DNA of 64,000 nucleotides from Parcubacteria group bacterium (lineage in GTDB: Bacteria; Patescibacteriota; Minisyncoccia; Phycocordibacterales; UBA2135). Below the pieces are notes generated by a model. It was not told the DNA's origin and searched no databases. It worked only from the letters and a program-made list of their open reading frames with translations. The stretch is from assembly GCA_016204005.1 (NCBI GenBank), contig JACQLS010000030.1, positions 25,952 to 89,951 on the forward strand. The letters are read 5' to 3'. A program made the position numbers and the translations under genes. Below, one piece after another: positions 16,497 through 61,672 of this stretch (the first letter of the stretch is position 1; each line of letters starts with the position of its first letter).

Positions 16497-16502
16497 GTGT
16501 TT

Positions 16503-16526: not shown

Positions 16527-16574
16527 GTGGCAAAGAGCAAAAACGCTCGTGTTCTACAGCTATAGTGACTGGGG

Positions 16575-16602
16575 TTGACTCTTTTCCGCAGTTTGCTATA
16601 GT
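16575..16602 (+). promoter_or_regulatory. Sigma70-like promoter upstream of tuf (-35 TTGACT, 16-nt spacer, -10 TATAGT)
   Basis: Read directly from the sequence. Confidence 0.5.
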
Positions 16603-16695
16603 GGTAGAAATCGCAATCGGTGCGCATTTTTCTTTTGGAAACAGGGCGCCGAGAGAATAATCATTAGTAATTACTTATTAATAATCTAATTTTTT

Positions 16696-17889: not shown

Positions 17890-17957
17890 GGCTCTAGGCC
17901 TTGGGCACTAGGTGCTAGAAAAATGCTTTAGTACCTAGCCCCAAGTTCTCGATCATC

Positions 17958-18326
17958 ATGGCAACGGAAACAAAACAAAAGAAAACAGCACGACCTCGAA
18001 AGAAGAAAGAGGAAGCGCAGGTCCACCGCCTTCGTATACGCGTCATGGCGTATGAGAACAAGGTGCTTGACGCAAGCGTGAAGCAAATTATTGACACGGC
18101 AATGCGTTACGGAGCAGATCTTCATGGGCCAGTGCCGCTTCCAACGGAAATCAAGAAGTATACGGTTAACCGTTCGACATTTGTACACAAAAATGCCCGT
18201 GAACAGTTTGAAATGCGCATTCACAAACGACTTATCGACATCGTGAATCCTTCGCATCAGGTTATTGAGTCCTTAACAAATCTCACGTTGCCGTCAGGTG
18301 TCAATATCGACGTCAAAATGATCTAA
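17958..18326 (+). CDS. rpsJ: 30S ribosomal protein S10 with a K-rich N-terminal extension
   Basis: RLRIRVMAYENKVLDASVKQI core; about 22 extra N-terminal residues. Confidence 0.88.
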   Translation: MATETKQKKTARPRKKKEEAQVHRLRIRVMAYENKVLDASVKQIIDTAMRYGADLHGPVPLPTEIKKYTVNRSTFVHKNAREQFEMRIHKRLIDIVNPSHQVIESLTNLTLPSGVNIDVKMI

Positions 18327-18327
18327 C

Positions 18328-18948
18328 ATGTCATTCCTTCTCGCAAAAAAGCAGAATATGATTCAATACTTTGATGAAAACGGGCGGGCATACCCCGCTA
18401 CTGTTTTAGTTGCGGGACCGACTACGGTGACGCAAGTCAAAAGCACTGAAACTGACGGATACAATGCCGTACAAGTCGGATTTGGGGAACAAACCCACAC
18501 GCGTCTCTCCAAGGCGCTTCGAGGGCATCTTAAAAAGTCAGGTACGAGCGCTCGTCATGTCAAAGAATTTCGCACTCCTGAAGTTCCAACACAAACTGTT
18601 GGGGATGTGGTGCGCGTAGAAGACGCCTTTAAGGTTGGCGATACTATTGTCGTAACGGGCATCTCCAAAGGCAAGGGGTTTCAGGGTGTTGTGAAGCGCC
18701 ACGGATTTGGTGGAGGTCCACGATCACACGGACAAAAGCACTCAGAACGTGAGCCGGGCTCTATTGGCGCAACGTGGCCACAGCGCGTCATCAAAGGCAT
18801 GAAAATGGCCGGTAGAATGGGTAGCGACCGCGTGACAGTAAAAGGACTCAAGGTTTTGAGTATTGACGCTAAGCAAAACCTCTTGGTAGTTAGTGGCGCA
18901 GTGCCAGGAAGACGGGGTACGCTCTTAGAGGTTAGGAGTAGCAAGTAA
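18328..18948 (+). CDS. rplC: 50S ribosomal protein L3
   Basis: L3 consensus; S10 operon order. Confidence 0.9.
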   Translation: MSFLLAKKQNMIQYFDENGRAYPATVLVAGPTTVTQVKSTETDGYNAVQVGFGEQTHTRLSKALRGHLKKSGTSARHVKEFRTPEVPTQTVGDVVRVEDAFKVGDTIVVTGISKGKGFQGVVKRHGFGGGPRSHGQKHSEREPGSIGATWPQRVIKGMKMAGRMGSDRVTVKGLKVLSIDAKQNLLVVSGAVPGRRGTLLEVRSSK

Positions 18949-18952
18949 CAAC

Positions 18953-19630
18953 ATGGAATCCCCAATCTACAACCAAAAAGGAGAAGAGGTTGGAAAAATT
19001 TCTTTACCAGAGAGCATTTTCGGCCTGCCCTGGAATGCTGATTTGGTACACCGTGTTTTTGTCTCCTACACAGTGAATGCGCGGACTTCAATTGCCCACA
19101 CAAAAAATCGCGCAGAGGTTTCTGGTGGTGGAAGGAAGCCTTGGCGGCAAAAGGGGACAGGTCGCGCGCGACACGGATCAATTCGCTCGCCTTTGTGGGT
19201 TGGTGGCGGTATTGCGTTTGGCCCACGGAACGAGCGAATCTATGAGGCAAAAATAAACAAAAAAGAGAAAATCAAAGCCCTCTTTGTTGCGCTCTCAGAA
19301 AAGATGCGTAGTGGAGAGATCTTCTTTCTTGATGCGCTTACGCTTGCGGATGCAAAGACACGCGAAGCAAAAACGCTTCTCTCGTCACTCGCAACCGCAT
19401 TGGGCAAGGACATGAATGCCACCCGGGCGCATGGAGTAATGGTCCTCACTTCAGCACAGGAGGAAATGCTTATTCGAAGCTTCCGTAATATCGGAAATGT
19501 AGAGGTAAAGAACATTTCGGATGTTAATCTTCCTGATGTCTTGCGCTTTAAATATCTAATCATTGTCGACCCAGAGAAGGGACTTCCTAAACTAGAGGGA
19601 AGGAAGACAACCCGTCGCGTTAACGCCTAA
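18953..19630 (+). CDS. rplD: 50S ribosomal protein L4
   Basis: Position and similarity (RKPWRQKGTGRAR). Confidence 0.88.
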   Translation: MESPIYNQKGEEVGKISLPESIFGLPWNADLVHRVFVSYTVNARTSIAHTKNRAEVSGGGRKPWRQKGTGRARHGSIRSPLWVGGGIAFGPRNERIYEAKINKKEKIKALFVALSEKMRSGEIFFLDALTLADAKTREAKTLLSSLATALGKDMNATRAHGVMVLTSAQEEMLIRSFRNIGNVEVKNISDVNLPDVLRFKYLIIVDPEKGLPKLEGRKTTRRVNA

Positions 19631-19662
19631 GCGTTACCTATTTATACGTTTAACTTTTTCTC

Positions 19663-20142
19663 ATGGCTTTATTCGATTTATTCAAAAACCAAAAGAAAGG
19701 CAGGGATGCCGATGCGGTAACTGCAAAACCGGCGCGCGAAACGGCGGCGGCGGAAGCACGCGCTCGTGAGAAACAAACGACATCTAAGGGGGAGGCAAAA
19801 GAAAAGAAGCAAAACCGCGCAGTCAAAGCAGCTGTAGCCAACACCCGTGACTCGGCAGAGGGCGGCGAGGCATACGCGTCTATTATCCTCAAACCTTTTA
19901 TTACGGAGAAGTCCTCTTTTATGAGTGCGGATGGCGCATATGTGTTTGCTGTCAGCAAAGATGCTACAAAGAATGAAATTAAAAAGGCGATCCGTGAAAT
20001 GTACAAAGTTACTCCGAAGCGAGTGAATATCCTAACACAACACGCAAAGCGTCGTTTTCTCCGGGGTCGAGAAGGCGTTCGCTCACGTCCCAAAAAGGCA
20101 ATTGTCTTTTTGAAAAAGGGTGATAGAATCGAATTCGTATAA
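19663..20142 (+). CDS. rplW: 50S ribosomal protein L23 with a ~65-aa A/K/E-rich N-terminal extension
   Basis: ILKPFITEKSS...YVFAVSKDATKNEIKKAI core. Confidence 0.85.
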   Translation: MALFDLFKNQKKGRDADAVTAKPARETAAAEARAREKQTTSKGEAKEKKQNRAVKAAVANTRDSAEGGEAYASIILKPFITEKSSFMSADGAYVFAVSKDATKNEIKKAIREMYKVTPKRVNILTQHAKRRFLRGREGVRSRPKKAIVFLKKGDRIEFV

Positions 20143-20153
20143 ACAGCTAGACT

Positions 20154-21002
20154 ATGAAGAAATTACGACCAACAACACCGGGACAACGAGGCGCCATCCT
20201 CCCAAGCTTTAAGGCAGTCTTAACGACCGGAAAACCGTTTAAGGCCCTTGTTCGTGGCGGGAAAAGGCATGGTGGACGTGGAAACACAGGCCGCATTACA
20301 ACCCCGCACAAAGGAGGTGGCCACAAGAGGCGTCGTCGCCTTGTTGATTTTCGTTTTGATAAAAAGGATATACCGGCGCGTGTTGAAACTATCGAATATG
20401 ATCCTGACCGCAGTGCCTTTATTGCCCTGGTCCTCTACAAGGATGGGGAGCGCCGCTACATACTTGCACCAAAGAACATGCGCCCCGGGGACACGTTCAT
20501 TGTTTCAAAGACCGCAGAATTGAAACCAGGTAACCGCACAGTTTTAGGAAACATCCCTGTGGGTACCTTTGTACATAACATCGAGATTCAGGCAGATGGC
20601 GGCGGTAGAATCGCCAGATCGGCAGGGGGATCTGCACAAGTAATCGCACACGCAGAGGGTCACACACAGCTTAAGATGCCGTCCGGAGAAGTGCGCAAGG
20701 TATCGCGTGCTGGGTGGGCGACGGTAGGAGAGGTTTCGCACGAAGAGCACAAGCTGCGTAGCATTGGCAAAGCAGGACGTTCACGATGGAAAGGCATTCG
20801 ACCAACAGTCCGAGGTGTTGCCATGAACCCGGTTGACCACCCGCACGGTGGTGGTGAAGCGCACCACTCGATTGGGCTACGTTCAGGCCCTAAGACACGG
20901 CAAGGAAAGCGTGTCGGGGGTGTTAAGACTCGTCGAGCAAAGAAATATTCGAACAATCTTATTATGCAAAGGAGGAAGAACGCCCGCGAGCGCAGGCGAT
21001 AG
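20154..21002 (+). CDS. rplB: 50S ribosomal protein L2
   Basis: GRITTPHKGGGHKRRRR motif; 282 aa. Confidence 0.92.
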   Translation: MKKLRPTTPGQRGAILPSFKAVLTTGKPFKALVRGGKRHGGRGNTGRITTPHKGGGHKRRRRLVDFRFDKKDIPARVETIEYDPDRSAFIALVLYKDGERRYILAPKNMRPGDTFIVSKTAELKPGNRTVLGNIPVGTFVHNIEIQADGGGRIARSAGGSAQVIAHAEGHTQLKMPSGEVRKVSRAGWATVGEVSHEEHKLRSIGKAGRSRWKGIRPTVRGVAMNPVDHPHGGGEAHHSIGLRSGPKTRQGKRVGGVKTRRAKKYSNNLIMQRRKNARERRR

Positions 21003-21034
21003 GAGACCCCGCCCCCCTTTTGGCGGATTATTAC

Positions 21035-21069
21035 ACAAAAGCCGGTCGCCTCAGGCGACCGGCTTTTGT
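21035..21069 (+). promoter_or_regulatory. Perfect 16-bp hairpin (acaaaagccggtcgcc tca ggcgaccggcttttgt) within the rplB-rpsS gap, followed by a promoter-like TTGACT(21071)...TATAGG(21092); internal attenuator/terminator-plus-promoter candidate
   Basis: Read directly; an unusual 136-nt gap inside an otherwise tight S10 operon. Confidence 0.45.
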
Positions 21070-21138
21070 GTTGACTTTTATCCTAGCGTTGTATAGGATA
21101 CCTTGAAGGCCCGCAAGGGCTCATTTTAACTGATTTGT

Positions 21139-21486
21139 ATGGTACGTTCATCCCGCAAAGGTCCCTACGTTGACCCCAAGCTAATGAAAAAAGTCGAAGG
21201 GCAGAAACCTGCGAGCGGGGTTATTAAGACATGGTCGCGTGACAGCCAGATTGCGCCAGAAATGGTTGGCTACACCTTCGGGGTCTATAACGGGAAGGAA
21301 CATCTCCCCGTTGCGGTAACGGAAGAAATGGTGGGGCATCGTTTGGGTGAATTCTCTCCGACAAAGAAATTCCTACGGCACGGAGGTAAGATGCAGAAGG
21401 AAATGGAGCAGAAGAAGCGCGAGGCGGAAATTGCCGCAGCTGCCGCAGCTAAGGTAGAGAAAGCTCCTGCCGAGAAGAAAAAGTAG
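21139..21486 (+). CDS. rpsS: 30S ribosomal protein S19 with a K/A-rich C-terminal extension
   Basis: [17 protein letters not shown]...[10 protein letters not shown] core. Confidence 0.88.
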
Positions 21487-21501
21487 TAACCAAACTTTTC
21501 C

Positions 21502-21879
21502 ATGAAAGCTTTTTTGCGAAACTATCGACAATCACCAAGAAAAGTTCGGCTTCTCGCTGATCTTGTTCGTGGCAGGGAAGTTTCGGACGCCCTCGTCATC
21601 TTGGAAGCGGCTGTAAAGCGCGGAGCGCTGCCCTTGAGGAAGCTCTTGAGCTCGGCTATCGCTAATGCAAAAAAGAATGACGGCATTGGAGACGAGAGCG
21701 CGCTATACGTAAAAGAGATTCGAGTCGATGAGGGTCCAACCATGAAGCGCGGAATGCCACGTGCATTTGGCCGTTCAGCAATCATTCGAAAGAGAACCTC
21801 GCACATCTCCCTTGTTTTGGGAGAAAAAGTGCAAAAACCAGAACCAGTTGAAACTAACAAGCTAAAGGCTAAAAGCTAA
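21502..21879 (+). CDS. rplV: 50S ribosomal protein L22 (ends ...KLKAKS, encoded by an AGCTAAA heptamer repeat)
   Basis: MKAFLRNYRQSPRKVRLLADLVRG core. Confidence 0.88.
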   Translation: MKAFLRNYRQSPRKVRLLADLVRGREVSDALVILEAAVKRGALPLRKLLSSAIANAKKNDGIGDESALYVKEIRVDEGPTMKRGMPRAFGRSAIIRKRTSHISLVLGEKVQKPEPVETNKLKAKS

Positions 21880-21889
21880 AAGCTGTTTT

Positions 21890-22564
21890 ATGACACACGT
21901 CGTCCATCCATACGCTCATAGATTGGGGATACTCCGTGACTGGAAATCACGTTGGTTTAAAAATGGCCCCGTATACAGGGATCAGCTTCGTGGCGACACG
22001 CTCTTGCGGGAATATCTTACTAAGCGCTTGCGCAGTTTTTATATTGCTTTGATTGAGATTGAGCGAAATGGCAAGATGACCAAAGTCATAATCTCGTCTT
22101 CTCGCCCAGGTATGATTATTGGAAGGCAGGGTGAAGGCTCATTAAAGTTAAAGAACGACATAGAGCAATTTGCTCGAAAGAAAAAGTTAAATGTCGGAGA
22201 GCTTAAAATCGAGGTAACAGAAGTGCGCTCGCCAGAATCAAACGCGGCAGTTGTCGCGTACATGATTGCGGAGGGGCTTGAGCGCCGCCTAGCTTTCCGT
22301 CGGGTGCTTAAGCAGACGATGGACAAGGTTATGGCAAATAGGCAGGTAAAGGGTGCCCGCTTTGCTCTCTCCGGGCGCCTTGGAGGTGCCGAGATGGGCC
22401 GAAGAGAAGCATTAAAGCAAGGAAACATTCCACTTCAGACGCTTCGAGCGGATGTTGACTTTGCTCGCGAAAAAGCGTACCTTCCCTACGGCGTCATAGG
22501 TGTTAAGGTATGGATTTATAAGGGCGAAGTGTTTGAAAAAAGCAAGGAAAAGCCCCGCAGGTAG
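21890..22564 (+). CDS. rpsC: 30S ribosomal protein S3
   Basis: KVHPYAHRLGILRDW core; KH domain. Confidence 0.9.
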   Translation: MTHVVHPYAHRLGILRDWKSRWFKNGPVYRDQLRGDTLLREYLTKRLRSFYIALIEIERNGKMTKVIISSSRPGMIIGRQGEGSLKLKNDIEQFARKKKLNVGELKIEVTEVRSPESNAAVVAYMIAEGLERRLAFRRVLKQTMDKVMANRQVKGARFALSGRLGGAEMGRREALKQGNIPLQTLRADVDFAREKAYLPYGVIGVKVWIYKGEVFEKSKEKPRR

Positions 22565-22587
22565 AACACCTTTCATACAACCCCACT

Positions 22588-23007
22588 ATGTTGTTTCCCA
22601 AAAAAGTAAAACACAGAAAATGGCATCGGATGCGTAAAAACCCAAAGAAGGTACGCATCGAAACTCGAGGCACTACAGTCGCCTTTGGCTCGTTTGGTTT
22701 GAAGGTGATTGCTCCCGGCTTTATTAGGTCCAACCAAATTGAAGCGGCTCGAAAAGTTGTTGCACGCGCGACAGCAAAAACCGGTAAAATGTGGATTCGT
22801 GTTTTTCCTGACCGTCCGTTTACCCAGAAAGCGGCAGAAGTCGGCATGGGTAAGGGAAAGGGAGATGTACAAGGGTACGAAGTAGAAGTATTGCCGGGAA
22901 GGGTCCTTTTTGAAATTGATGGAGTAGAGAGCGTTGCCGCGGAGCTCGCTTTGCGTAAGGCCGGCTCAAAGCTCCCAGTAAAGACTAAAGTAGTTGCGCG
23001 GGTTTAG
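22588..23007 (+). CDS. rplP: 50S ribosomal protein L16
   Basis: MLFPKKVKHRKWHRMR N-terminus and operon position. Confidence 0.88.
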   Translation: MLFPKKVKHRKWHRMRKNPKKVRIETRGTTVAFGSFGLKVIAPGFIRSNQIEAARKVVARATAKTGKMWIRVFPDRPFTQKAAEVGMGKGKGDVQGYEVEVLPGRVLFEIDGVESVAAELALRKAGSKLPVKTKVVARV

Positions 23008-23010
23008 TTT

Positions 23011-23199
23011 ATGCAATACAAGGAACTACAATCAAAAGGAGTAGACGAGCTCAAAAAGCTCATCAGAGAGAAGCGCAAGGCGCTGCGGCTTTTTCGCTTC
23101 GGCTCCGCAGGTTCACGAACGAAAAATGTGAAAGAAGGCCGGAATTTGCGAAGAGATATAGCGAGAATTTTAACAAAGGTTACAGAGAAGTCATCATAA
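23011..23199 (+). CDS. rpmC: 50S ribosomal protein L29
   Basis: Size and position; [18 protein letters not shown]. Confidence 0.8.
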
Positions 23200-23200
23200 T

Positions 23201-23446
23201 ATGGCTACAGGAGACCGAAAAACACGTCGTCAGCTCAAGGGGACCGTTGTCTCTGACAAATCGGACAAAACCGTCGTTGTTTTGGTAAACCGGTATGTTG
23301 AGCATTCGAAATACGGGAAGTTTATGCGTGTAAGCAAGAAATACAAAGCACACGATCCGGAGAACAAGTATAAGATTGGAGACACCGTTGTGATCGAAGA
23401 ATGCGCTCCGATATCAAAAGATAAACGTTTTAAAGTTTTAGCATGA
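23201..23446 (+). CDS. rpsQ: 30S ribosomal protein S17
   Basis: [28 protein letters not shown]. Confidence 0.88.
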
Positions 23447-23814
23447 TACAACCAGAAGCAAAAGTCATAGTTGCCGACAACTCGGGCGCACGCTTGTGCG
23501 AGGTCTTTAAAATTTTAGGCGGAACGCGAAGGCGTTACGCACGCATTGGCGATATTGTTGTTGCCTCTGTTAAGATTGCTGAACCGCGCAAGCTTGTAAA
23601 GAAAAAAGATGTCGTGCACGCTGTCGTGGTGCGTCAGCGCCAGCCATTCCGTAGAAAAGACGGCACGTACGTCAAGTTTGACGACAATGCTATCGTCATT
23701 ATCGAGAAAGGCAAAAAGGAGCCTCGTGCGGGACGTATTTTTGGACCTATCCCGAGGGAGCTGGGCGAACTTGGTTATCAGAAGATTATTTCTCTAGCAC
23801 CTGAGGTGGTGTAG
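23443..23814 (+). CDS. rplN: 50S ribosomal protein L14
   Basis: [17 protein letters not shown]. Confidence 0.92.
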
Positions 23815-23825
23815 CCTCCTATACT

Positions 23826-24131
23826 ATGCGGATTAAAAAAGGCGACAATATAATAGTCATTTCTGGTAAAGACAAAGGCAAGACGGGTAAAATCACCCAC
23901 GCCTTTCCTTCTGATGATCGAGTTATTGTTGAAGGCGTAAATATGAGGAAAAAGCACAGAAGGTCAACGCAATCTCGGCAGAAAGGACAGATAGTTGAAT
24001 TTGCCTCTCCTATTCATGCTTCGAACGTGATGCTTGTTGATCCTAAGACAGGAAAGCCAACGAGGATCGGTATGAAAATGGAAGGGGGGAAAAAGGTGCG
24101 CGTAGCGAAAAAGAGCAACACGGTACTGTAA
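23826..24131 (+). CDS. rplX: 50S ribosomal protein L24
   Basis: [23 protein letters not shown] (KOW). Confidence 0.9.
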
Positions 24132-24159
24132 AACATTTTGAGTTTTTGAAACATATCGT

Positions 24160-24720
24160 ATGAAGCTAACAAAGGAAAAAGAAAAAACAGCATTCGATGC
24201 CCTTAAGGGTGTATTTGGGTATGAGAATCGAATGGCCTCGCCACGTCTCGTCAAAGTAGTGGTTGGCTCTGGCACAGGGAAAGCATCGCGTTCTGATAAG
24301 AATCGGAATGATTTTATTGCTGAGCGCTTAGGGAAGATTGTTGGCCAAAAGCCGTCTCCGCGCGGGGCGAAAAAGTCAGTCGCGTCATTTAAGGTGCGTG
24401 AGGGGGAGCACATCGGTTTTTCGGCGACATTGCGAGGCCGACGTATGTATGATTTCCTTGACCGCTTTCTCTCAATTGCCTTGCCGAGGACACGCGATTT
24501 TCGCGGGGTATCCCGTACGGCTATTGACCAGATGGGAAACATTACGATTGGGGTGCCCGAGCACACGGTTTTCCCTGAAACGACAGATGAGGAATTGAAA
24601 AATGTCTTTGGGCTTGCCGTTACTATCGTGACTACGGCAAAGACAAAGGCGGAGGCAGAAGCGTTTCTTACACACATCGGCGTACCCTTCAAAAAAGAGG
24701 AGGAGTCTAAAAAGGCATAA
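24160..24720 (+). CDS. rplE: 50S ribosomal protein L5
   Basis: Position and similarity. Confidence 0.88.
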   Translation: MKLTKEKEKTAFDALKGVFGYENRMASPRLVKVVVGSGTGKASRSDKNRNDFIAERLGKIVGQKPSPRGAKKSVASFKVREGEHIGFSATLRGRRMYDFLDRFLSIALPRTRDFRGVSRTAIDQMGNITIGVPEHTVFPETTDEELKNVFGLAVTIVTTAKTKAEAEAFLTHIGVPFKKEEESKKA

Positions 24721-24785
24721 AAGTAGCAGATTGACTTCCGGTACCACCTTCTATATTATGTGTGGAAGCCCGTTAGGGCTTTCAT

Positions 24786-24980
24786 TTGGTTTTTATGGCA
24801 AAAAAGTCTGTAATTGCAAGATCAGAAAAGAAACCCAAATATCAGTCGCGCGTCGTACGGCGCTGTTTTCGATGCGGAAGAAGGAGGGGTTACATGCGTG
24901 ACTTTAATCTTTGCCGCATTTGTTTCAGGGAGCTCGCAAATGAAGGGATGATACCAGGAGTTAAAAAGTCTTCTTGGTAG
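24786..24980 (+). CDS. rpsZ: 30S ribosomal protein S14 type Z (zinc-binding)
   Basis: [23 protein letters not shown] CxxC...CxxC motif. Confidence 0.88.
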
Positions 24981-25009
24981 TAAAACGTTTTCAAATATTC
25001 GATTGAACC

Positions 25010-25396
25010 ATGGATCCAATAGCCGACATGTTAATCCAAATAAAGAACGCAAGCTTGGTCCGGAAGGGATCGGTTGTTGTTCCCTATGCTAAGTTCTCGC
25101 ACGCGGTTGCCGACGTACTGGTGCGCGAAGGATATCTAAAGGAGGCAAGTAAGAAAGGACGTAAGGAAAAAAAGGTGCTTGAACTTGAGATTGCGTATGA
25201 GAACGGAAAGCCAAAGGTAGAAGATGTACAGCGTCTTTCAAAACTCTCTCGTCGAAAATACCTCGCTGTTCATGAAATTCGTCCCGTGCGCCAAGGCTAC
25301 GGAACACTTGTCATCTCAACACCCAAGGGGGTTCTTACAGGAGACGAGGCGAAAAGGCAAAAAGTAGGAGGAGAGGCCTTGTTTAAGATTTGGTAA
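25010..25396 (+). CDS. rpsH: 30S ribosomal protein S8
   Basis: MDPIADMLIQIKNAS. Confidence 0.9.
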   Translation: MDPIADMLIQIKNASLVRKGSVVVPYAKFSHAVADVLVREGYLKEASKKGRKEKKVLELEIAYENGKPKVEDVQRLSKLSRRKYLAVHEIRPVRQGYGTLVISTPKGVLTGDEAKRQKVGGEALFKIW

Positions 25397-25403
25397 TACG
25401 CGT

Positions 25404-25937
25404 ATGTCCAGAATAGGAAAACGACCAATACCCATACCAGCAAAAACAGAAGTTACCGTGGATAACCACACGGTTGTTGTTCGTGGGCCTCTCGGCGAGA
25501 CTCGTCGCTCCTTTACGGATGAGGTTTCTATTGAAGTAGAAAATGGCGCTGTGCTTGTTACCCCGCGTCGTAATGCTAAGCGAACACGCGCATTGTGGGG
25601 CACATATGCCGCGCACATAAAGAACATGCTCAAGGGAGTCAATACTCCCTATGCGAAAGATTTAATCGTGGAAGGCGTAGGATATCGCGCCGAGGTTAAG
25701 GGAAAGTCCTTGGTGCTCCAGGTTGGCTTTTCACACCCGGTACCAATGCTTATCCCCGAAGGTATTTCTGTGAATGCGGAAAAAAATGCTATTCGCGTTA
25801 GTGGTATTGATAAGGAGGCGGTTGGTCAATTTGCCGCAGATGTGCGCGCTGTAAAGAAGCCAGAGCCGTATAAGGGCAAGGGTATCCGTTACGCGGACGA
25901 AGTTATCCGAAGAAAGGTTGGTAAGAAAGCCGCGTAA
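25404..25937 (+). CDS. rplF: 50S ribosomal protein L6
   Basis: MSRIGKRPIPIP N-terminus. Confidence 0.9.
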   Translation: MSRIGKRPIPIPAKTEVTVDNHTVVVRGPLGETRRSFTDEVSIEVENGAVLVTPRRNAKRTRALWGTYAAHIKNMLKGVNTPYAKDLIVEGVGYRAEVKGKSLVLQVGFSHPVPMLIPEGISVNAEKNAIRVSGIDKEAVGQFAADVRAVKKPEPYKGKGIRYADEVIRRKVGKKAA

Positions 25938-25970
25938 AGAATCGTTTTCATAATTCTTATTTGTAATCAT

Positions 25971-26321
25971 ATGAAGTCTAAAACAACTTTAAGGAAACGG
26001 CGTCATATACGCATTCGAGCAAAGGTACACGGAACAGCCACGCGTCCGCGTCTTTCGGTGTTTCGATCGAACAAGCATTTTTATGCCCAGCTTATCAATG
26101 ATGATGCCTCCGTTACGCTCGGCGCTTCATCTGACGGTAAGGTAAGGGGCGGCAGAGAGAGCTCTCCGAAGGAGCGTGCAAAACTCATTGGTGCTGATAT
26201 CGCGGAGCAGGCAAGAGAAAAGGGCATTAAAGAAGTTGTCTTTGACCGCGGTGGTTTTGCCTACACAGGTATCATTAAAGAATTTGCTGAGGCTGCACGA
26301 GGGGCAGGTCTTGGATTTTAA
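25971..26321 (+). CDS. rplR: 50S ribosomal protein L18
   Basis: RLSVFRSNKHFYAQLI. Confidence 0.88.
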   Translation: MKSKTTLRKRRHIRIRAKVHGTATRPRLSVFRSNKHFYAQLINDDASVTLGASSDGKVRGGRESSPKERAKLIGADIAEQAREKGIKEVVFDRGGFAYTGIIKEFAEAARGAGLGF

Positions 26322-26330
26322 ACTGTATCT

Positions 26331-26972
26331 ATGACAGACGTTCCAACAAACACAAACACAGAACAAAAAGTTGTGACTGAAGCTCAAACTTCCGTTGCCG
26401 GGACAAGTGCTCCAAAGAGTACTTCATTTGGCGGGAGGGGTGCCGGGAGGGGAGAACGACCCCGGAGAGGAAGAGGAGGGCGCCCCGGAGAAGGAGGCGA
26501 CTCTCGTCGTGGAGGAGGCCGTCCGCGTCGCACAAACACTCGCGCGCGCCCCGAGTTTGACCAAAAGGTCATTGATGTTCGTCGTGTCGCTCGTGTCGTT
26601 GCCGGAGGTCGGCGCTTTAGCTTTAGCGTTGTTATCATATTGGGCGACAGGAAAGGGAGAGTTGGTGTTGGTATCGGCAAAGGGGGGGACACATCACTTG
26701 CGATTGAAAAGGCGACAAGGTTCGCAAAGAAAAGCATGATAAAGATACCTCTCACCGAATCGATGTCGATTCCGCACGAAACAGGCGCGAAATACTCGAG
26801 TGCCGTTGTCGAAATTGTCCCAGCCCCGGGAAAGGGTTTGGTTGCCGGAAGCTCAGTCCGAACAGTCCTCGATTTTGCTGGCGTCACGGATGTTGCCGCA
26901 AAGGTTATGGCTCGGAGCAAAAACAAACTAAACAATGCTCGAGCAGCCATTGAAGCATTGAAACGGCTCTAA
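26331..26972 (+). CDS. rpsE: 30S ribosomal protein S5 with a G/R-rich N-terminal extension; rplO follows directly with no rpmD (L30)
   Basis: KRVARVVAGGRRFSFSVVIILGDRKGRVGVGIGKG core; N-terminal GGRGAGRGERPRRGRGGRPGEGG low-complexity stretch. Confidence 0.88.
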   Translation: MTDVPTNTNTEQKVVTEAQTSVAGTSAPKSTSFGGRGAGRGERPRRGRGGRPGEGGDSRRGGGRPRRTNTRARPEFDQKVIDVRRVARVVAGGRRFSFSVVIILGDRKGRVGVGIGKGGDTSLAIEKATRFAKKSMIKIPLTESMSIPHETGAKYSSAVVEIVPAPGKGLVAGSSVRTVLDFAGVTDVAAKVMARSKNKLNNARAAIEALKRL

Positions 26973-26982
26973 TATTCACACC

Positions 26983-27432
26983 ATGCAATTAAACAAACTA
27001 AAACCAGCAACTGCTCGCAGGGCAGGGAAACACATCGGCCGCGGAGGTAAACGCGGTACGTATTCGGGGCGTGGCGGAAAGGGTCAAACAGCGCGTTCAA
27101 ATACGCACATGCGCCCTGAGATGCGAGACATCATTAAAAAGATCCCCAAGAGGCGTGGGTACGGCAAGAACCGCGCTCGCACGGTTAATGACTCGCGACG
27201 CGAATCCTTGCCAATAACTCTGAAACTCCTTGAATCAAAATTCTCTTCTGGAGAATCCGTGACTGTAGAGACCTTGAACGCTAAGGGGCTCATTAAGAAG
27301 AGTCGTTCTGCCAGGCTCCCCATCAAGATTTTGGGAATGGGTGCGCTCTCGAAAAAGCTCTCCGTCTCCGGCGTATCTCTTTCTAAGGGTGCGAAAGAGG
27401 CGATTCTACATGCCGGAGGCACAGTAAAGTAG
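26983..27432 (+). CDS. rplO: 50S ribosomal protein L15
   Basis: MQLNKLKPATARRAGKHIGRGGKRG. Confidence 0.88.
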   Translation: MQLNKLKPATARRAGKHIGRGGKRGTYSGRGGKGQTARSNTHMRPEMRDIIKKIPKRRGYGKNRARTVNDSRRESLPITLKLLESKFSSGESVTVETLNAKGLIKKSRSARLPIKILGMGALSKKLSVSGVSLSKGAKEAILHAGGTVK

Positions 27433-27490
27433 CTTCACTAGCTTTCTGGGGGATGACCACCTAACGGAAGCTAATGAAGCCCATGAAGCC

Positions 27491-28762
27491 ATGCAAACCT
27501 TCTTCCAAAAATTCAAATTAGCTCTCAGTGATGCAACGCTCCGAAGGAGGATTCTCTTTGTCTTGGGCGCGCTTGTTATTTTTCGCATTCTCGCTGTTGT
27601 CCCAATTCCGGGGATTGATCCAGTGCGTCTCTCAGAATTTCTTTCGAATAACCAATTTTTTGGACTCCTCAACATCTTCTCAGGAGGCGGTTTGTCCAAT
27701 CTCTCTATTGTCATGTTGGGTGTTACCCCGTACATCACGGCCTCCATTATCATGCAGCTTTTGACTGTCATGTCAGCCAAGCTTAAGGCGCTCTACCATG
27801 AGGAGGGTGAGGCGGGGCGCAAGAGGTTCATGCAGTATTCGCGCCTCATCATGGTCCCGCTCGCGGTTATTCAGGGAGTTGGATTGATCCTCATCCTTTC
27901 ACGGCAGGGTGTCGTCGAGAGTTTGGGGGGCTTTGACCTATTGACCAACGTCATTGTTATCACGGCGGGATCGGTGCTCCTCATGTGGTTGGGAGAGCTC
28001 ATATCAGAATTTGGGATCGGCAACGGTGTCTCGCTTATTATCTTTGCGGGTATCGTGGCGGCACTTCCAGCTACGGTTCAACAGCTCATCTTCACCTTTG
28101 ATGTTGCCCAAATTCCTGTGTATCTCGGGTTCTTAACTGCGGCCATTATTATTGTTGCCGGTATTATCTGGATCACGGAGGCAGAACGGCCGATTCCTGT
28201 TTCTTATGCGAAAAGAGTCCGCGGAGGACGGATGTATGGCGGTATTCAAACATATCTCCCGTTGCGTTTGAACCAAGCGGGGGGTATCCCGATCATCTTT
28301 GCGCTCTCTATTCTCCTTTTCCCGCAAATGATTGTCAACTTTCTCGTAGGGGTAGACAATACCGCCGTACTTGCTGTGGGGAGGATGCTACAAGCGTTTT
28401 TCAACAACACCGTACTCTACGCCGCTTTCTATTTCTTCCTCGTGTTTTTCTTCACGTATTTTTACACTGCGGTGACGTTTGACCCGCACTCTATTGCCAC
28501 GAATCTTCAAAAGAACGGCGCCTTTATTCCCGGTGTACGCCCCGGCAACACAACAGCGGACTACATTGCGGCGATTTTGACGCGCATCACTCTTGTTGGC
28601 GCCCTTTTCCTTGGCACTGTGGCAGTTCTCCCCGTTGTCATGCAAGGTATTACCGGCATTACTGCATTTGCGATCGGAGGCACAAGCGTCCTCATCGTCG
28701 TTGCTGTTTTACTCGATCTCGTGAAAAAGATTGACGCGCAAATAGCAATGCGAGAATACTAA
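27491..28762 (+). CDS. secY: Preprotein translocase subunit SecY
   Basis: 10-TM protein downstream of rplO; SecY consensus blocks. Confidence 0.9.
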   Translation: MQTFFQKFKLALSDATLRRRILFVLGALVIFRILAVVPIPGIDPVRLSEFLSNNQFFGLLNIFSGGGLSNLSIVMLGVTPYITASIIMQLLTVMSAKLKALYHEEGEAGRKRFMQYSRLIMVPLAVIQGVGLILILSRQGVVESLGGFDLLTNVIVITAGSVLLMWLGELISEFGIGNGVSLIIFAGIVAALPATVQQLIFTFDVAQIPVYLGFLTAAIIIVAGIIWITEAERPIPVSYAKRVRGGRMYGGIQTYLPLRLNQAGGIPIIFALSILLFPQMIVNFLVGVDNTAVLAVGRMLQAFFNNTVLYAAFYFFLVFFFTYFYTAVTFDPHSIATNLQKNGAFIPGVRPGNTTADYIAAILTRITLVGALFLGTVAVLPVVMQGITGITAFAIGGTSVLIVVAVLLDLVKKIDAQIAMREY

Positions 28763-28891
28763 AATAGTATATGGTATTTAGTATCTTGTATTTGGTATAG
28801 AAAACACACGCTCCGATGTTTTGTCCGAGCGCGTGTTTTGTTTTTGTGCGTACGTCGTATACTATATACCAAATACTAAATACTATATACT
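28763..28891. repeat. Nested palindromic intergenic element: ~34-nt imperfect terminal inverted repeats (agtatatggtatttagtat... / ...atactaaatactatatact) flanking a terminator hairpin (aaaacacacgctc...gagcgcgtgtttt + T-run)
   Basis: Read directly; MITE/REP-like architecture between secY and adk. Confidence 0.5.
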
Positions 28892-28898
28892 TTTGTTT

Positions 28899-29480
28899 AT
28901 GGACAACGCCTACATTTTTATCGGCCGTTCCGGATGCGGCAAAGGAACACAAGCAGAGCTTTTGAAAGCCTATCTTGAAAAGAAAAATCCCGGGCAAAGG
29001 GTCATATGGTTTGGCACCGGGGAACGGTTCAGGACGTTTCTTAAAGAACCTGGACATACACAGGATATTGCTCGCGGTTATGTTGAAAGAGGCAAGCTCT
29101 CCCCTGAATTCTTGGCGATTCATATCTGGTCTCATTTTTTTATTGAGGATATTGTTGGCGGCGAAAGTGTCATCTTTGACGGCACGCCAAGAAAACTGAA
29201 TGAAGCGCGTGTGCTTGACGACGCCCTCGAGTTTTATGGCGCGAAGGTTTCGGTGATTTTTATAAATGTTTCTCGAGAGTGGGCGCGAGAACGTTTGCTC
29301 GGGCGAGGAAGACAGGATGACACAGAAGAATACATTAAAAATCGACTTGATTGGTTTGAAAGTGACGTTGCAGAGACGCTGGCTTTCTATAAGGACTCAA
29401 AACATGCCTTTCTCGAGATTAATGGCGAACAGCCAATACCAAAAGTACACGAGGATATCGTGAAGCAGCTTGAAGCGTAA
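28899..29480 (+). CDS. adk: Adenylate kinase
   Basis: IFIGRSGCGKGTQAELL P-loop; start at the internal Met of track ORF 28821. Confidence 0.85.
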   Translation: MDNAYIFIGRSGCGKGTQAELLKAYLEKKNPGQRVIWFGTGERFRTFLKEPGHTQDIARGYVERGKLSPEFLAIHIWSHFFIEDIVGGESVIFDGTPRKLNEARVLDDALEFYGAKVSVIFINVSREWARERLLGRGRQDDTEEYIKNRLDWFESDVAETLAFYKDSKHAFLEINGEQPIPKVHEDIVKQLEA

Positions 29481-42166: not shown

Positions 42167-43333
42167 TTAGGCGCGGATGCGCGCAATCTCGTAGTTTGAA
42201 TACATCTTATTCCCAGTTACATCTTCTAGCACCGGGAGGAATGGCGGAAGTGAAACTTTACTCGTCTCCCTAGTCAGCTCAACCTCTAGGAGGAGAAGGC
42301 CGGTAGCCGGGTCTCTGAATACATCGAGTTCAAAGTATTGGTTTTCCCACGCGAAACAAAAACGATGTTTTTGTATAACCGCGAACCTGGGGTCGCGAAC
42401 GCGAGCAAGTTCGCCGTACATTTCGGGTGAAATGTGTTTTTCCGTTTCCGCGCGAGCAAATGTCCCAGGAATTTCCCACTTGTGTGTACGATAGTATACA
42501 TATGTACCGTCTTGGCCGCGACGGCGAATGCGTCCTTCATTACCCGGAGCTTCACCCGTCAAATACATCTGTTCAATCTGAACACACTCAAATGGGATCC
42601 GCAGTTCTTTGAGTAGCCGCGGATTAAACGACGGATCGATGAGATATTTTCTCTCAATCTCGATCGGCACCGGGATGCCGAGGACAACGCAGACCTCTTG
42701 GAAGAGTCGATCAATCTTTTCTTCAAAGCCCGTTGAGTTATCAATGGATCGCCAGTGTGGGTGCCCCATCCATGCCTCAAGCGTCTCTTTGTCTCTCTCC
42801 CGAGCTTCTCCCAACGTTGTTTCTTGGCGAGCGGTGTTATTTGCAACCGTGTAGAACGCCTCTGCTCCAAATGCCGCCGTGACGAGATGGAAGACGGCAT
42901 TATAGGGAAGATCGCGCAGGTGGGGGATTTTGAGACCCGACTCGTGCGCGAGTTGTTTGAACAGATCCGCTTTTGCGTACCCGAGTATGTCCATAAAACC
43001 GCGGTCGCAGATCACCACCTTTTTCTTGGCTTTGGATCGAGCCACATAGCGACGGTAGTTGAGTTCCCGTGCAAGTGTCTCTTCAAAGACACAACGTTGG
43101 AATGTTTGAAAGTCCAATCCATTTGCATCCGGCTTAATCCCCGCATTTATGAGAAGTGTCGGCACCTCGGGCGGCATAAAAACCGTGAACCCGCGGTCCA
43201 AGAGCTTCTGTTCAGTGCGGCACAAAGCCGTCGTCTTGCCCGCGCACGGCCCGCCAGTAAGAACCATGATCGGAACGTCTTCTGGCCTCAAGTGTTTTAG
43301 TATCTCTGCCTCAGAACTGAAGTGAGGAAGCAT
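42167..43333 (-). CDS. Two-domain protein: N-terminal P-loop NTPase/kinase-like domain (AAA_28/NadR-like or uridine-kinase-like) fused to a C-terminal CYTH (triphosphate tunnel metalloenzyme) domain
   Basis: VLTGGPCAGKTT (Walker A). CYTH hallmarks: IEIERKYL (ExExK), FELDVF and LEVEL. Start placed at MLPHFSS; the track ORF extends to 43606. Confidence 0.6.
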   Translation of the reverse strand: MLPHFSSEAEILKHLRPEDVPIMVLTGGPCAGKTTALCRTEQKLLDRGFTVFMPPEVPTLLINAGIKPDANGLDFQTFQRCVFEETLARELNYRRYVARSKAKKKVVICDRGFMDILGYAKADLFKQLAHESGLKIPHLRDLPYNAVFHLVTAAFGAEAFYTVANNTARQETTLGEARERDKETLEAWMGHPHWRSIDNSTGFEEKIDRLFQEVCVVLGIPVPIEIERKYLIDPSFNPRLLKELRIPFECVQIEQMYLTGEAPGNEGRIRRRGQDGTYVYYRTHKWEIPGTFARAETEKHISPEMYGELARVRDPRFAVIQKHRFCFAWENQYFELDVFRDPATGLLLLEVELTRETSKVSLPPFLPVLEDVTGNKMYSNYEIARIRA

Positions 43334-58831: not shown

Positions 58832-58936
58832 TATCTCGATCTTTGGGAAGGCCGCGCCGAACTCTGCGCGGCCTTTTTGATTTTAAAAAGTCCCCAGCCT
58901 TCTTGCGTGCAAAAGAGGTCGTAGTATTATAAGAGT

Positions 58937-59170
58937 ATGGATACTGGAATAAAAATAAGTCCCGCCCTAATTGGCGCAGGAGTTCTCGTCCTTATTCTCA
59001 TTGTGATCGGCTTCTGGTTTTTACCGCAGAAGCAAGAGGGCGCGCTTCAAAGTGCCGAGGAGGCAAGTGGGGCAGTGCCAGAGATCTCGACTAATCCGGC
59101 CGAGTCGGTGCCAGAGGTAAACCCAGTCGATCGTGCGAACCCCTTTAAATACGATAATCCCCTCCGATAA
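58937..59170 (+). CDS. Small single-pass membrane protein (77 aa), unknown function
   Basis: One TM helix then an acidic/Pro-rich tail; 3 nt upstream of the Cys-repeat protein gene. Confidence 0.4.
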   Translation: MDTGIKISPALIGAGVLVLILIVIGFWFLPQKQEGALQSAEEASGAVPEISTNPAESVPEVNPVDRANPFKYDNPLR

Positions 59171-59173
59171 CAT

Positions 59174-61672
59174 ATGTCCCTTGTTCTCTCTAAAAAATTG
59201 TCAGCCCTCACGATCTTTTTCGCAGGGCTCTTTATGAGTTTGTCTCTTGTTGCTACCGCTCTCGCGGCGACACAAGACTCCTCGATTTCTTTGAAGAAAG
59301 ACCCCAGCTCTGGACTTTTCGTCCTTACTGTGAGAGACCCGGACGGCATTCAGGAGTTCTCTCTTAAGCCAGTTAGGGGGTCTTCTTATGGTGGCGGGCT
59401 AGGTAGCTGTCCTCGGACTTTCACGAGCGACAATGTCGCTGTCTTCACCGACCTCTCTTTTGATCCGGCAATGCCAGCTTTTGTCATTGACTGTAATAAC
59501 AACACAACCGAACTTGAAATCGGCGCTCTTAAAAATGGGTTCACCTCAAGCAGCATTGTGAAGAAAGAAACGCCAGTCACGGAGTCCGTCGATGCAGCCA
59601 CCACACCAACATCCACGAAACAAGAAGAAAAGGAAGAAGACGAGAGTTCCCTCGGGAACGTAACATTTCCCGTGCCGGAACTGGGCAACTGCAAGAGTGA
59701 GAATGATTGCCGGTCCTATTGCGATAACGCCGATCATGCTAAGGAGTGCCTCACCTTTGCTAAGAAGCACAACCTTATCTCCGAAGAAGAAGCTGAAGAG
59801 GCGGCCGACAAGTTTTTGAATGTTAAAAATGGCCCAGGGGGATGCGATTCATGGTCTTCCTGCGAATCATATTGCAGCAGCATTGACCGTTTGGACGAAT
59901 GTATTTCGTTTGCCGAGAAATCAGGGCACTCAAATGAAAAGATAGCAGAAGCAAAAAAGATTCAGGCCTTAGTCAAAAGTGGCAAGCAATTTCCGGGTGG
60001 TTGCAAAGATCGAAACTCATGCGAGCTGTATTGTGCAGACGTAACACACATGGAAGAGTGTATTGCCTTTGCCGAAGATGCTGGTTTTATGCCGGAAGAG
60101 GAGTTGAGGCAAGCAAAGAAGATTCTACCATTGATGAAGCGTGGCGAAATGCCGGGCGGATGCACCTCCAAGGAACAGTGCGAGAAATACTGTGAAGCCG
60201 AAACCCACTTTGAAGAATGTATCGCTTTTGCCGAAAAGGCAGACCTTCTTTCTGGTGAAGAAAAAGAGATGTTGAGAAAGACGGGCGGGAAGGGGCCTGG
60301 CGGTTGTAAGGGCAAAAAACAATGCGAGGCATATTGCGAGACCAACTCAGAAGCGTGTTTCAACTGGGCGAAAGAAAATGGTGTTTTGAAAGAAGAAGAT
60401 CTTGCAAAAATGCGCGAGGGAATGACACGCTTCCGCGACGAACTCGATAAGATGCCTCCGGAGGTTGTATCTTGTCTCAAACAGAACATGGGCGAGGAAA
60501 ACTTCACAAAGATGTCGAGTGGCGAGCCTGTGTTCGACCGCTCTCTTGAGGGCAAAATGAAATCATGCTTCGGCGCCATAACCAAACAAGTAAGCAGCCA
60601 ACTGCACTCTCTGCCACCAGAAGCAGCCGAGTGTATCAAGAACACTATAGGAGAAGACGGCCTCTCGAAGCTTCAAAGCGGAGAGTTTGATCCCACCACC
60701 ACCGATTTTGGTAGTTTGGAGACCTGTTTCCAAAAGATACAGGAGTCATTCGGTGGTCCAGGAGGTTTGGGAGGGCCAGGCGGTTGCAAATCTAAGGAAG
60801 AATGTCAGGCGTATTGTGAATCTAACCAAGAAGAGTGCAAAGGCTTCAGCCCTTCAGGTGGCGGCGGTTTCTCGGGAGGGGGATCAGGTGGCTTCTCCGG
60901 TCCAGGCGGGTGCCATTCAATAGATGAATGCACCGCGTATTGTGAAGGCAATCCCGAAAAGTGCCAAAACTTCGGACCTTCAGGTGGCGGCGGGTTTCCG
61001 GGTGGTCCCGACGGCGGATTCCCTGGCGATGGGGCGACCAGAGAACAATTCCCCGGCGGTGGAGCAACGGGCGGCGGGTTTCCGGGAGGACCAGGCGGGT
61101 GCACCAGCCAAGAAGAGTGCAGGGTGTACTGTGAAAAAAATCCAAGAGAATGCCAAGGGTTTACTCCTCCCGGTGGAGGTCCTGCCTACCAAAACGAGTC
61201 GCAGATAAGGCATGATGGAGGAGCCGAAGAATGCGCAAAGCGGGGCGGCAAATTTGATGGTAGTACGTGTGTCTTTCCCGAGAGGTCTATAGACGGAAGG
61301 AATACATCGATATGCCCCTCTATGCCTACTGTTGATTCCTGTCCCTCTGGACAAGAGAAGGTCGTGACCTTCAAGTCGAGTGAGTGTGGTGAATATTACG
61401 GATGTAAACCGGCATCCAATACAGAAGTGACTAATCCCAGCTCCGGTTACGAGCAACAATACAAAGAAGAATACCAGAGACAATACGAAGAGCAGTACAA
61501 ATTACAGTATCAACCACAGTATCAGCCGCCACCAGCACCATATCCGGACAGCGGTACATACCAACCGCCAACTACTGCACCGCAAGAGGGCGAGACGCGC
61601 CTGTATCAAGCTCCTGAGGGCTCACTCGGAGCAAATGTTCGAGCAATCTTAAGCGGCCTTGCTCATAAGTAG
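59174..61672 (+). CDS. Secreted protein (signal peptide) built from 8 tandem copies of a four-cysteine module (PGGC-x5-C-x2-YC-x6-7-EC), with Gly-rich linkers and a C-terminal Q/Y/P-rich tail
   Basis: Repeats read directly, e.g. GPGGCDSWSSCESYCSSIDRLDEC, FPGGCKDRNSCELYCADVTHMEEC, GPGGCKSKEECQAYCESNQEEC, GPGGCTSQEECRVYCEKNPREC. N-terminal hydrophobic signal MSLVLSKKLSALTIFFAGLFMSLSLVATALAA. Confidence 0.6.
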   Translation: MSLVLSKKLSALTIFFAGLFMSLSLVATALAATQDSSISLKKDPSSGLFVLTVRDPDGIQEFSLKPVRGSSYGGGLGSCPRTFTSDNVAVFTDLSFDPAMPAFVIDCNNNTTELEIGALKNGFTSSSIVKKETPVTESVDAATTPTSTKQEEKEEDESSLGNVTFPVPELGNCKSENDCRSYCDNADHAKECLTFAKKHNLISEEEAEEAADKFLNVKNGPGGCDSWSSCESYCSSIDRLDECISFAEKSGHSNEKIAEAKKIQALVKSGKQFPGGCKDRNSCELYCADVTHMEECIAFAEDAGFMPEEELRQAKKILPLMKRGEMPGGCTSKEQCEKYCEAETHFEECIAFAEKADLLSGEEKEMLRKTGGKGPGGCKGKKQCEAYCETNSEACFNWAKENGVLKEEDLAKMREGMTRFRDELDKMPPEVVSCLKQNMGEENFTKMSSGEPVFDRSLEGKMKSCFGAITKQVSSQLHSLPPEAAECIKNTIGEDGLSKLQSGEFDPTTTDFGSLETCFQKIQESFGGPGGLGGPGGCKSKEECQAYCESNQEECKGFSPSGGGGFSGGGSGGFSGPGGCHSIDECTAYCEGNPEKCQNFGPSGGGGFPGGPDGGFPGDGATREQFPGGGATGGGFPGGPGGCTSQEECRVYCEKNPRECQGFTPPGGGPAYQNESQIRHDGGAEECAKRGGKFDGSTCVFPERSIDGRNTSICPSMPTVDSCPSGQEKVVTFKSSECGEYYGCKPASNTEVTNPSSGYEQQYKEEYQRQYEEQYKLQYQPQYQPPPAPYPDSGTYQPPTTAPQEGETRLYQAPEGSLGANVRAILSGLAHK

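Follow-up and report, generated by a model that had tools for sequence, protein, structure and literature searches.

The stretch of DNA analysed here, a window of 64,000 nucleotides (nt) from contig JACQLS010000030.1 of a Parcubacteria group bacterium, carries a two-gene unit whose larger gene encodes a cysteine-rich protein of 832 amino acids (aa), built on a tandem four-cysteine module that is undescribed within the limits of the libraries that we have searched. The smaller gene, just upstream, encodes a membrane protein of 77 aa. The two genes are kept together throughout the class Paceibacteria (Parcubacteria). These bacteria are highly diverse and poorly understood; to our knowledge almost none of them has been grown in culture, and little is understood of the construction of their envelope or of their attachment to hosts. 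We give about an even chance to the reading that the unit makes a cell-surface assembly of the Paceibacteria, most likely a surface fibre or an adhesin. The window had been described before from its letters alone, with no database searches (hereafter the sequence-only reading), and several claims of that description are taken up below.

The large protein contains 44 cysteines, against none at all in many of the other open reading frames (ORFs) of the window. It has exactly eight modules of the form C-x5-C-x2-Y-C-x8/x6-C, whose first cysteines lie at aa 173, 224, 277, 330, 378, 538, 580 and 643. Both a regular expression (C-x5-C-x2-Y-C-x4-9-C) and a module hidden Markov model (HMM) built from homologs give this number, where the sequence-only reading had counted at least eight. 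Shuffled copies of the same protein, used as the null, yielded on average 0.0008 matches to the expression, and the HMM, run over 69 ORFs of the window, recovered the same eight copies and no others. Two details of the first description have to be corrected. The third and fourth cysteines are separated by x8 in modules 1–4 and by x6 in modules 5–8, not by x6/7 (family-wide, x8 is found in 628 modules and x6 in 257), and in place of a single unit of about 40 aa there are two sizes: modules 1–5 are units of 48–54 aa with the consensus PGGCxSxxxCExYCxxxxHxEECIAFAEKxG, and modules 6–8 are cores of about 22–27 aa, joined by the Gly-rich GGGGF(S/P)GG linkers that had been correctly noted. All four cysteines are kept in 920 of 929 family modules, without one replacement by His or Asp, and their four columns are invariant in an alignment of 107 sequences. 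Tandem Repeats Finder detected no repeat at the DNA level at this gene, and the module copies are thus ancient and diverged rather than low-complexity sequence. Together with the conserved homologs, this rules out a low-complexity or DNA tandem repeat artefact; an unconserved artefact of that kind was what the sequence-only reading had said would refute it, and the ORF is conserved, hence real.

A word-limited protein search returned 742 homologs, the best 120 of them at 33–62% identity; the exact 832-aa product is unmatched in the gene-position collection, and the top database homolog is only about 60% identical. All of the named homologs come from metagenome-assembled genomes (MAGs) of Parcubacteria/Patescibacteria (Paceibacteria), for example Sung-, Nealson-, Niyogi- and Harrisonbacteria, where they are annotated as ‘hypothetical’ or ‘LamG domain-containing’, and almost all of the homologs have five long modules at nearly fixed spacing. 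Scanning the GTDB species representatives with one peptide pattern confirmed 217 loci, of which we have examined the best 80; these represent at least 14 named candidate lineages and include the complete Wolfebacteria genome CP011209. A profile of the five long modules matched 1,758 of 1.84 billion cluster representatives at E≤0.001 (925 at E≤1e-30), with 5–14 modules in each. The search for the cysteine pattern in other proteomes of the candidate phyla radiation (CPR), which the sequence-only reading had suggested, has in this way uncovered a class-wide family. In homolog alignments the C-terminal half is far more variable than the N-terminal half. A LamG/ConA-like domain (PF13385) lies near the C-terminus of about 45 of the 120 relatives (e.g. 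P0001, 782–944; P0186, 741–903) and is missing from many others, and most members have a Pro-rich segment and a C-terminal amphipathic tail.

The small gene is as constant as the modules. A jackhmmer search of the + strand ORFs in the fetched loci, started from the 77-aa protein, placed a homolog directly upstream of the large gene, and in its orientation, in 79 of the 79 loci whose DNA extends that far; the three other loci (L019, L067 and L079) each start inside the large gene. When the ORFs of all 82 loci were clustered, the small gene proved to be the only conserved neighbour, and the intergenic gap is mostly between -4 and +20 nt. The single transmembrane (TM) protein encoded 3 nt upstream in the window is confirmed, and the earlier suggestion that it may be a partner is strengthened by this synteny and by a Niyogibacteria MAG (L011) in which small and large genes are duplicated together in tandem (small ORFs at 3061–3369 and 4595–4903). 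The cassette is likewise doubled in L012, also from Niyogibacteria, with two copies each of the small ORF and of the large gene, and in L078 the large gene alone is duplicated. The small protein starts with a short basic stretch, has one TM helix and continues through a variable linker into a conserved tail, which is also its end and has the consensus VPEI.TNP...VPE(V/I)NP....NPFKY.NP(L/F)(R/E); in the window this tail reads VPEISTNP..VPEVNPVDRANPFKYDNPLR. No Pfam or NCBIfam family covers the 77-aa protein, which is 100% identical to the hypothetical protein HY457_02795 of a Parcubacteria group bacterium and is also present in SRR12113383/4. The family can be recognised by a signal peptide, the motif DIxFPVxELGNC, at least five modules and an NP-tail protein encoded upstream; the window shows all of these, and they are common to 79 of 79 testable loci.

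No known family could be matched. At E≤10, Pfam gave for the large protein only UTP20_C (E=0.013, under its cutoff), and NCBIfam gave at most chance-level matches for either protein. Neither phmmer with the whole protein nor hmmsearch with the five-module profile found anything below E=0.19 among all PDB sequences. Foldseek, at E≤0.001, matched neither of the two structural models described below to the PDB, nor the first of them to BFVD; the top matches were to a designed helical repeat, at E=0.067 and a root-mean-square deviation of 17 Å. The N-terminal beta-sandwich resembles only generic Ig/C2/CBM-like folds (all E>0.1), and the Cys-rich region near the C-terminus has a weak granulin-like fold match (E=7.9). 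Full-text literature searches turned up no account of the two genes as a pair, nor of the module and architecture of the large protein. The impression of the sequence-only reading that this cysteine pattern is not a known domain is thus borne out by Pfam, NCBIfam, the PDB sequences and the Foldseek comparisons with PDB and BFVD.

The protein was modelled with AlphaFold (AF2) in two parts, where a check on two or three repeats had been proposed earlier: aa 31–425, with 106 homologs (model 1), and aa 421–832 (model 2). Model 1 has a predicted local distance difference test (pLDDT) score of 87.3 and a predicted template modelling (pTM) score of 0.71, and shows a beta-sandwich followed by 15 helices arranged as five repeating triplets, so that the long modules are confident three-helix units. 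In each of them the first cysteine stands immediately N-terminal of helix 1, at its N-cap, the second and third lie in helix 1 one turn apart (i, i+4), the fourth is in helix 2, and helix 3 leads into the next module. The pLDDT remains at 86–96 across the module junctions, which suggests a continuous rod. Model 2 (pLDDT 69.8) has helical beads at good confidence with disordered Gly linkers between them; the short modules 6–8 are single-helix beads (pLDDT 84–93), and beyond the Q/Y-rich helix the end of the model is disordered. Between rod and beads are two repeats of about 41 aa, each with one Cys pair, which have no Pfam match and are conserved in the subfamily that bears the beta-sandwich. 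Neither this second repeat type nor the beta-sandwich had been noted in the sequence-only reading. The motifs C..GG.(W/F)DG..C and CGxYYxC of the Cys-rich region recur among homologs, and so do QQYxxQY-like stretches, which are frequent and located before the C-terminal tail. As predicted helices, such stretches would line up their Tyr residues on one face; self-association or glycan stacking are possible roles.

The beta-sandwich, with its invariant cysteine pair C79/C107, occurs in only about one half of the family; the other half retains rod and partner gene alike, and there the mature chain opens with DIxFPVxELGNC, the motif that precedes module 1. One form of the small-protein tail, NPFKY/NPLR, occurs only where there is a sandwich (25 of 38 loci, against 0 of 41 without one), and in the other loci the tails end in NPF(E/K/Q). 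This association could either be the consequence of co-evolution or reflect shared ancestry, that is, a clade effect. Docking of the small-protein tail on the sandwich was considered as a general mechanism and rejected, because the half of the family that lacks the sandwich keeps the partner gene.

The clear signal peptide claimed earlier is indeed there. It is of Sec type, with predicted cleavage after ALA (MSLVLSKKLSALTIFFAGLFMSLSLVATALA followed by ATQ, the cut falling between ATALA and ATQ). No lipobox was found in it by regular expression, the sole lipobox-like match being internal, at aa 431. A motif search found no twin-arginine motif, and the signal is thus not of the twin-arginine translocation (Tat) type; the consensus N-terminus of the homologs has K where a Tat signal would show RR.

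At the other end of the chain, the Q/Y/P-rich tail of the sequence-only reading is not the true C-terminus; the chain continues for about 45 aa past the Q/Y-rich segment, and its terminal residues, SLGANVRAILSGLAHK, are hydrophobic and amphipathic (mean hydropathy 1.08 over the C-terminal 14–16 aa). Throughout the family there are two classes of C-terminus, which some members combine: a four-Cys ending of the form ...CSYVG.PDSQNYKYCKQC(Y/F)PDK, and a spacer rich in Pro/Ser or Q/Y that leads into an amphipathic or hydrophobic tail of about 15 aa with a final R or K, such as SSLLGTILGPWLLLLK and SPLGLILAPFVELFR. A tail hydropathy of at least 0.7 is found in 53% of 249 family members, against 1.6% of internal windows, and R or K is the last residue in 130 of the 249. 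We abandoned a narrow HMM of the GP-type tail, which gathered just 29 more members and scored the tail of the window protein at -1.1 bits, in favour of the hydropathy measure. A scan of 926 ORFs from the fetched loci gave no other protein family with such a tail, except for one doubtful match (8.3 bits) in an unrelated 217-aa ORF (L050, 8367..9020). The check for anchoring signals of sortase or PEP-CTERM type, also proposed earlier, gave nothing: the pattern LP.[TSA][GAN] for LPXTG and the PEP motif are without match in the 832-aa protein, the NCBIfam CTERM/sorting models match neither it nor ten strong-tail relatives at E≤10, and there is no sortase- or exosortase-like gene among the conserved neighbours in the 82 clustered loci. 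The best hydrophobic C-terminal stretch of the window protein has 14 aa, with an Arg inside. It is possible that the C-terminal element acts in retention or sorting, as a signal of a new type.

The cysteines of the modules would either form disulfides or bind metal, and we favour disulfides on indirect grounds. Several observations argue in this direction: the signal is of Sec rather than Tat type, implying export in an unfolded state, and CxxC does not occur once in the whole protein in spite of its 44 cysteines; single domains of the same chain contain isolated Cys pairs (C79/C107, C434/C465 and C487/C518); and the four cysteines of the modules are kept almost without exception and never exchanged for His or Asp. 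An even number of cysteines in 103 of 120 homologs was also counted toward disulfides. Moreover, an MdbA-like oxidoreductase and VKOR are enriched in CPR bacteria (bioRxiv 10.1101/335083), so that a means of oxidative folding would be at hand. Which cysteines pair with which is not inferable from paired losses, because so few modules have lost any of the four. Alternatively, the protein could be a metal-binding array, each module being a tetrathiolate site for Zn, Fe, Cu or Cd, and the whole, with about eight sites, would store, buffer or scavenge metal outside the cell. The invariance of the four cysteines would fit such sites; the modelled geometry, with its N-cap cysteine, its i,i+4 pair and a fourth cysteine on the next helix, could in principle enclose one ion; and disulfides are generally less favoured in the mostly anoxic groundwater habitat. 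Nevertheless, a zinc ribbon or knuckle is expected to have a CxxC knuckle at each site and this protein has none, His and Asp never take the place of a cysteine, and a Sec-type signal makes loading of a cofactor in the cytoplasm impossible. The isolated pairs have disulfides as their only option, oxidative folding of MdbA/VKOR type is encoded by CPR bacteria, and the helical fold is confidently predicted without any ligand. We therefore regard a metal array as distinctly unlikely.

From these features we infer how the assembly may be exported, folded, held at the surface and used. The large protein would be exported unfolded via Sec and would fold outside the cytoplasm as an elongated stalk, which begins with the optional beta-sandwich and continues as a rigid rod. 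The rod would consist of the five three-helix modules, and in each of them the four invariant cysteines most likely form two disulfide staples. Beyond the rod there would follow the two 2-Cys helical repeats, then flexible mini-modules on Gly linkers, then a distal part that varies with the lineage, lectin-like (LamG) in many relatives and probably a small Cys-rich beta domain here; the chain would finish with the Q/Y-rich helix and the short amphipathic tail. The small membrane protein, presumably made in step with the large one given their 3-nt spacing, most likely uses its NP-rich tail, which is conserved, to hold or organise it at the membrane. In this picture the helical rod, likewise conserved, would form the scaffold, and glycans or proteins from the environment or a host cell would be bound by the variable distal part. 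A role in adhesion or host interaction is plausible: LamG/ConA-like lectin proteins are the usual candidates for attachment in Patescibacteria (PMC12911398), and both the C-terminal LamG domains of the relatives and the variability of the C-terminal half point toward binding.

There are several points that weigh against a fibre or adhesin. The N-terminal 420 aa are 40–65% identical across very deep lineages, more conservation than an adhesin usually shows, and a housekeeping role in the envelope would agree with it at least as well. No recognised anchor is present (LPXTG, PEP-CTERM, lipobox and the NCBIfam CTERM models are all without match), the window protein itself has no match in Pfam to LamG/Laminin_G_3 (PF13385) or to another recognised binding domain, and the charges flanking the TM helix of the small protein (1.8 against 2.1 K+R) do not settle its topology. 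It is the strong conservation of the N-terminal half that makes a housekeeping component of the envelope the main rival: a spacer or stalk between the membrane and the wall or S-layer, or a disulfide-cross-linked lattice, with the C-terminus of secondary importance. The class-wide pair with its fixed architecture would suit such a component, and a two-gene unit of stoichiometric appearance as the only conserved neighbourhood is typical of a structural complex; so too would the members that do without the beta-sandwich and keep rod and partner gene, and the Pro-rich segment and amphipathic tail of most members. However, S-layer proteins are typically Cys-poor, neither Pfam nor NCBIfam detects an SLH, LysM or PG_binding wall-binding domain in the window protein, and the variable lectin-like domains at the C-terminus resemble ligand-binding heads. 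We hold this explanation possible though doubtful.

There is also a more ambitious version of the surface assembly, which we consider unlikely: a class-defining envelope system in which a disulfide-stapled rod of new fold, captured non-covalently at the membrane and independently of the known sorting pathways, displays interchangeable host-binding domains. The amphipathic C-terminal tail, the module array or both may be captured, together with the NP-rich tail of the dedicated 77-aa protein. A further possibility, a secreted effector or inhibitor (a protease inhibitor or toxin-like binder) with the small protein as export or maturation helper or as immunity factor, seems very improbable. Some relatives do have Kazal-like segments (Kazal_1 in P0134, at 30.2 bits and above its cutoff; faint Kazal_2 matches in others), a covalent anchor is not recognised, and disulfide-rich mini-domains are frequent in secreted inhibitors, but the window protein has no Kazal match (PF00050/PF07648), the great size and the rod-like repeats are atypical of inhibitors, the core is conserved vertically through the class without the variability of toxin and immunity genes, and the conserved amphipathic tail and Pro-rich spacer suggest retention by the cell.

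The coordinates of the two genes and of their parts are given in Table 1. The unit is preceded by corA (CorA by Pfam), after which there is an intrinsic terminator with an 8-bp GC stem (GGCCGCGC/GCGCGGCC) and a T-run (-23.6 kcal/mol, z = -3.8); the hairpin downstream of the pair is weak. The promoter-like element that follows the terminator remains tentative, since it is missing from the output of a promoter consensus scan. We see no Shine-Dalgarno sequence before the small gene (58903..58939), and the two-gene transcript is possibly leaderless, judging from the sequence.

Table 1. Features of the two-gene unit (window positions; all on the + strand).
Feature	Position	Strand	Description
Intrinsic terminator	58850..58878	+	after corA; 5' boundary of the two-gene unit
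Promoter-like element	58903..58930	+	TTGCGT, 16 nt, TATTAT; weak; ends 6 nt before small-gene ATG; found by eye
Small gene	58937..59170	+	77-aa single-pass membrane protein; ends 3 nt before large-gene ATG
Large gene	59174..61672	+	832-aa product; ATG start; listed among the window ORFs
Sec-type signal peptide	59174..59266	+	aa 1–31 (predicted)
N-terminal beta-sandwich	59267..59557	+	aa 32–128; eight strands, pLDDT 86–95 (AF2 model 1)
Thr/Glu-rich linker	59576..59647	+	aa 135–158; predicted disordered, pLDDT <50 at model residues 105–128
Five long four-Cys modules	59675..60448	+	aa 168–425; three helices each; module alignment and AF2 (pLDDT 86–96)
Long-module unit boundaries	59675–59827, 59828–59986, 59987–60145, 60146–60289, 60290–60448	+	from alignment
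Two 2-Cys helical repeats	60455..60736	+	aa 428–468, 481–521; PPExxxC...C(F); pLDDT 83–93
Three short four-Cys modules	60773..61168	+	aa 534–560, 576–602, 639–665; GGGGF(S/P)GG linkers between; module HMM
Cys-rich region	61223..61411	+	aa 684–746; six Cys; short helix and beta hairpins (AF2 model 2)
Q/Y-rich segment	61430..61528	+	aa 753–785; Tyr at every fourth residue; helix predicted for aa 759–779
Amphipathic/hydrophobic tail and stop codon	61616..61672	+	EGSLGANVRAILSGLAHK; aa 815–832; element found family-wide

With respect to the surroundings, one of the homologs has a DoxX gene and a weak thioredoxin-like gene close by (L001, 12368..14040), which are not conserved neighbours elsewhere; they are possibly redox helpers. 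Two other Cys-rich ORFs stand out in the window, which is Cys-poor in general, at 12623..13459 (-; 278 aa, 19 Cys) and 42755..43300 (+; 181 aa, 11 Cys); the module HMM matches neither, and they may be spurious antisense or out-of-frame ORFs. A large cluster of ribosomal-protein and translation-factor genes (EF-G, EF-Tu, an S10-spc-like operon and a SecY-like ORF) could be discerned from N-terminal sequences at 13505..29480 (+), and the cumulative GC skew rises across the window, which fits a single replichore.

The interest of this cassette lies in its presence in at least 14 candidate lineages with a strict and recognisable motif and a confident fold that matches no curated family or structure; it offers a concrete target for metaproteomics, for labelling in cryo-electron tomography and for recombinant structural work. 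The labels ‘LamG domain-containing’ and ‘hypothetical’ conceal one common conserved core. Should the module be a three-helix unit stapled by disulfides, it would speak for oxidative folding on a large scale outside the cytoplasm of presumed strict anaerobes. If the pair should prove to be a class-defining envelope system, it would embody a novel principle of anchoring, and the largest CPR class would have its first conserved candidate for an attachment organelle.

Among the known systems, the closest in layout are the surface proteins of Gram-positive bacteria of the staphylococcal protein A type, which consist of a signal peptide, five three-helix-bundle domains, a Pro-rich wall-spanning region and a C-terminal sorting signal. 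The window protein likewise has a Sec signal, five tandem three-helix units of about 50 aa, a flexible Gly/Pro region and a short hydrophobic C-terminus with a basic end. However, there is neither a sequence nor a fold match and no LPXTG, the modules carry four invariant cysteines, the tail has 12–14 residues, often with E or R inside, and is too short for a TM stop-transfer, and here there is a dedicated gene for a small membrane partner. Although the protein belongs by these comparisons neither to this class nor to another known sorting system, the layout has led us to propose a surface stalk that the small membrane protein would retain or organise. The C-terminus of about half of the family also resembles the CTERM-type sorting signals (LPXTG, PEP-CTERM, GlyGly-CTERM and PGF-CTERM) in having a Pro/Ser spacer, a hydrophobic stretch and a basic end, but the stretch is shorter and amphipathic, with neither a signature motif nor a match to an NCBIfam model.

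As for the modules, the Helicobacter Hcp proteins (Sel1-like, PF08238) are secreted alpha-helical repeats, each of which is probably stapled by cysteines, and in this the two bacterial systems would be alike. The Hcp or Sel1-like repeats are helix pairs of about 36 aa with two cysteines, whereas the units here have 48–54 aa, three helices and four cysteines, and Sel1 has no Pfam match to the window protein at E≤10. The CHCH proteins of the mitochondrial intermembrane space have twin CX3C/CX9C modules whose four cysteines are oxidised after the unfolded chain has been translocated. By analogy, the module may be comparable as a small helix-loop-helix unit whose fold depends on four cysteines; nevertheless, the cysteine pairs are symmetric there and follow C-x5-C-x3-C-x8/6-C here, in a module that is bacterial, extracellular and arranged in a tandem array, and neither Pfam nor the PDB sequences revealed any homology. 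Finally, the LamG/ConA-like surface proteins of Patescibacteria and DPANN include relatives, annotated as LamG, that are 55–62% identical to the window protein over the shared part; that label covers only an optional insert and not the four-Cys core or the partner gene. The general kind of molecule, a secreted helical-repeat surface protein stapled by cysteines, is therefore one already known, and the sequences of the family are already public as hypothetical or LamG proteins; what is new is the module, the small protein that is its obligatory partner and a C-terminal tail that belongs to no known class.

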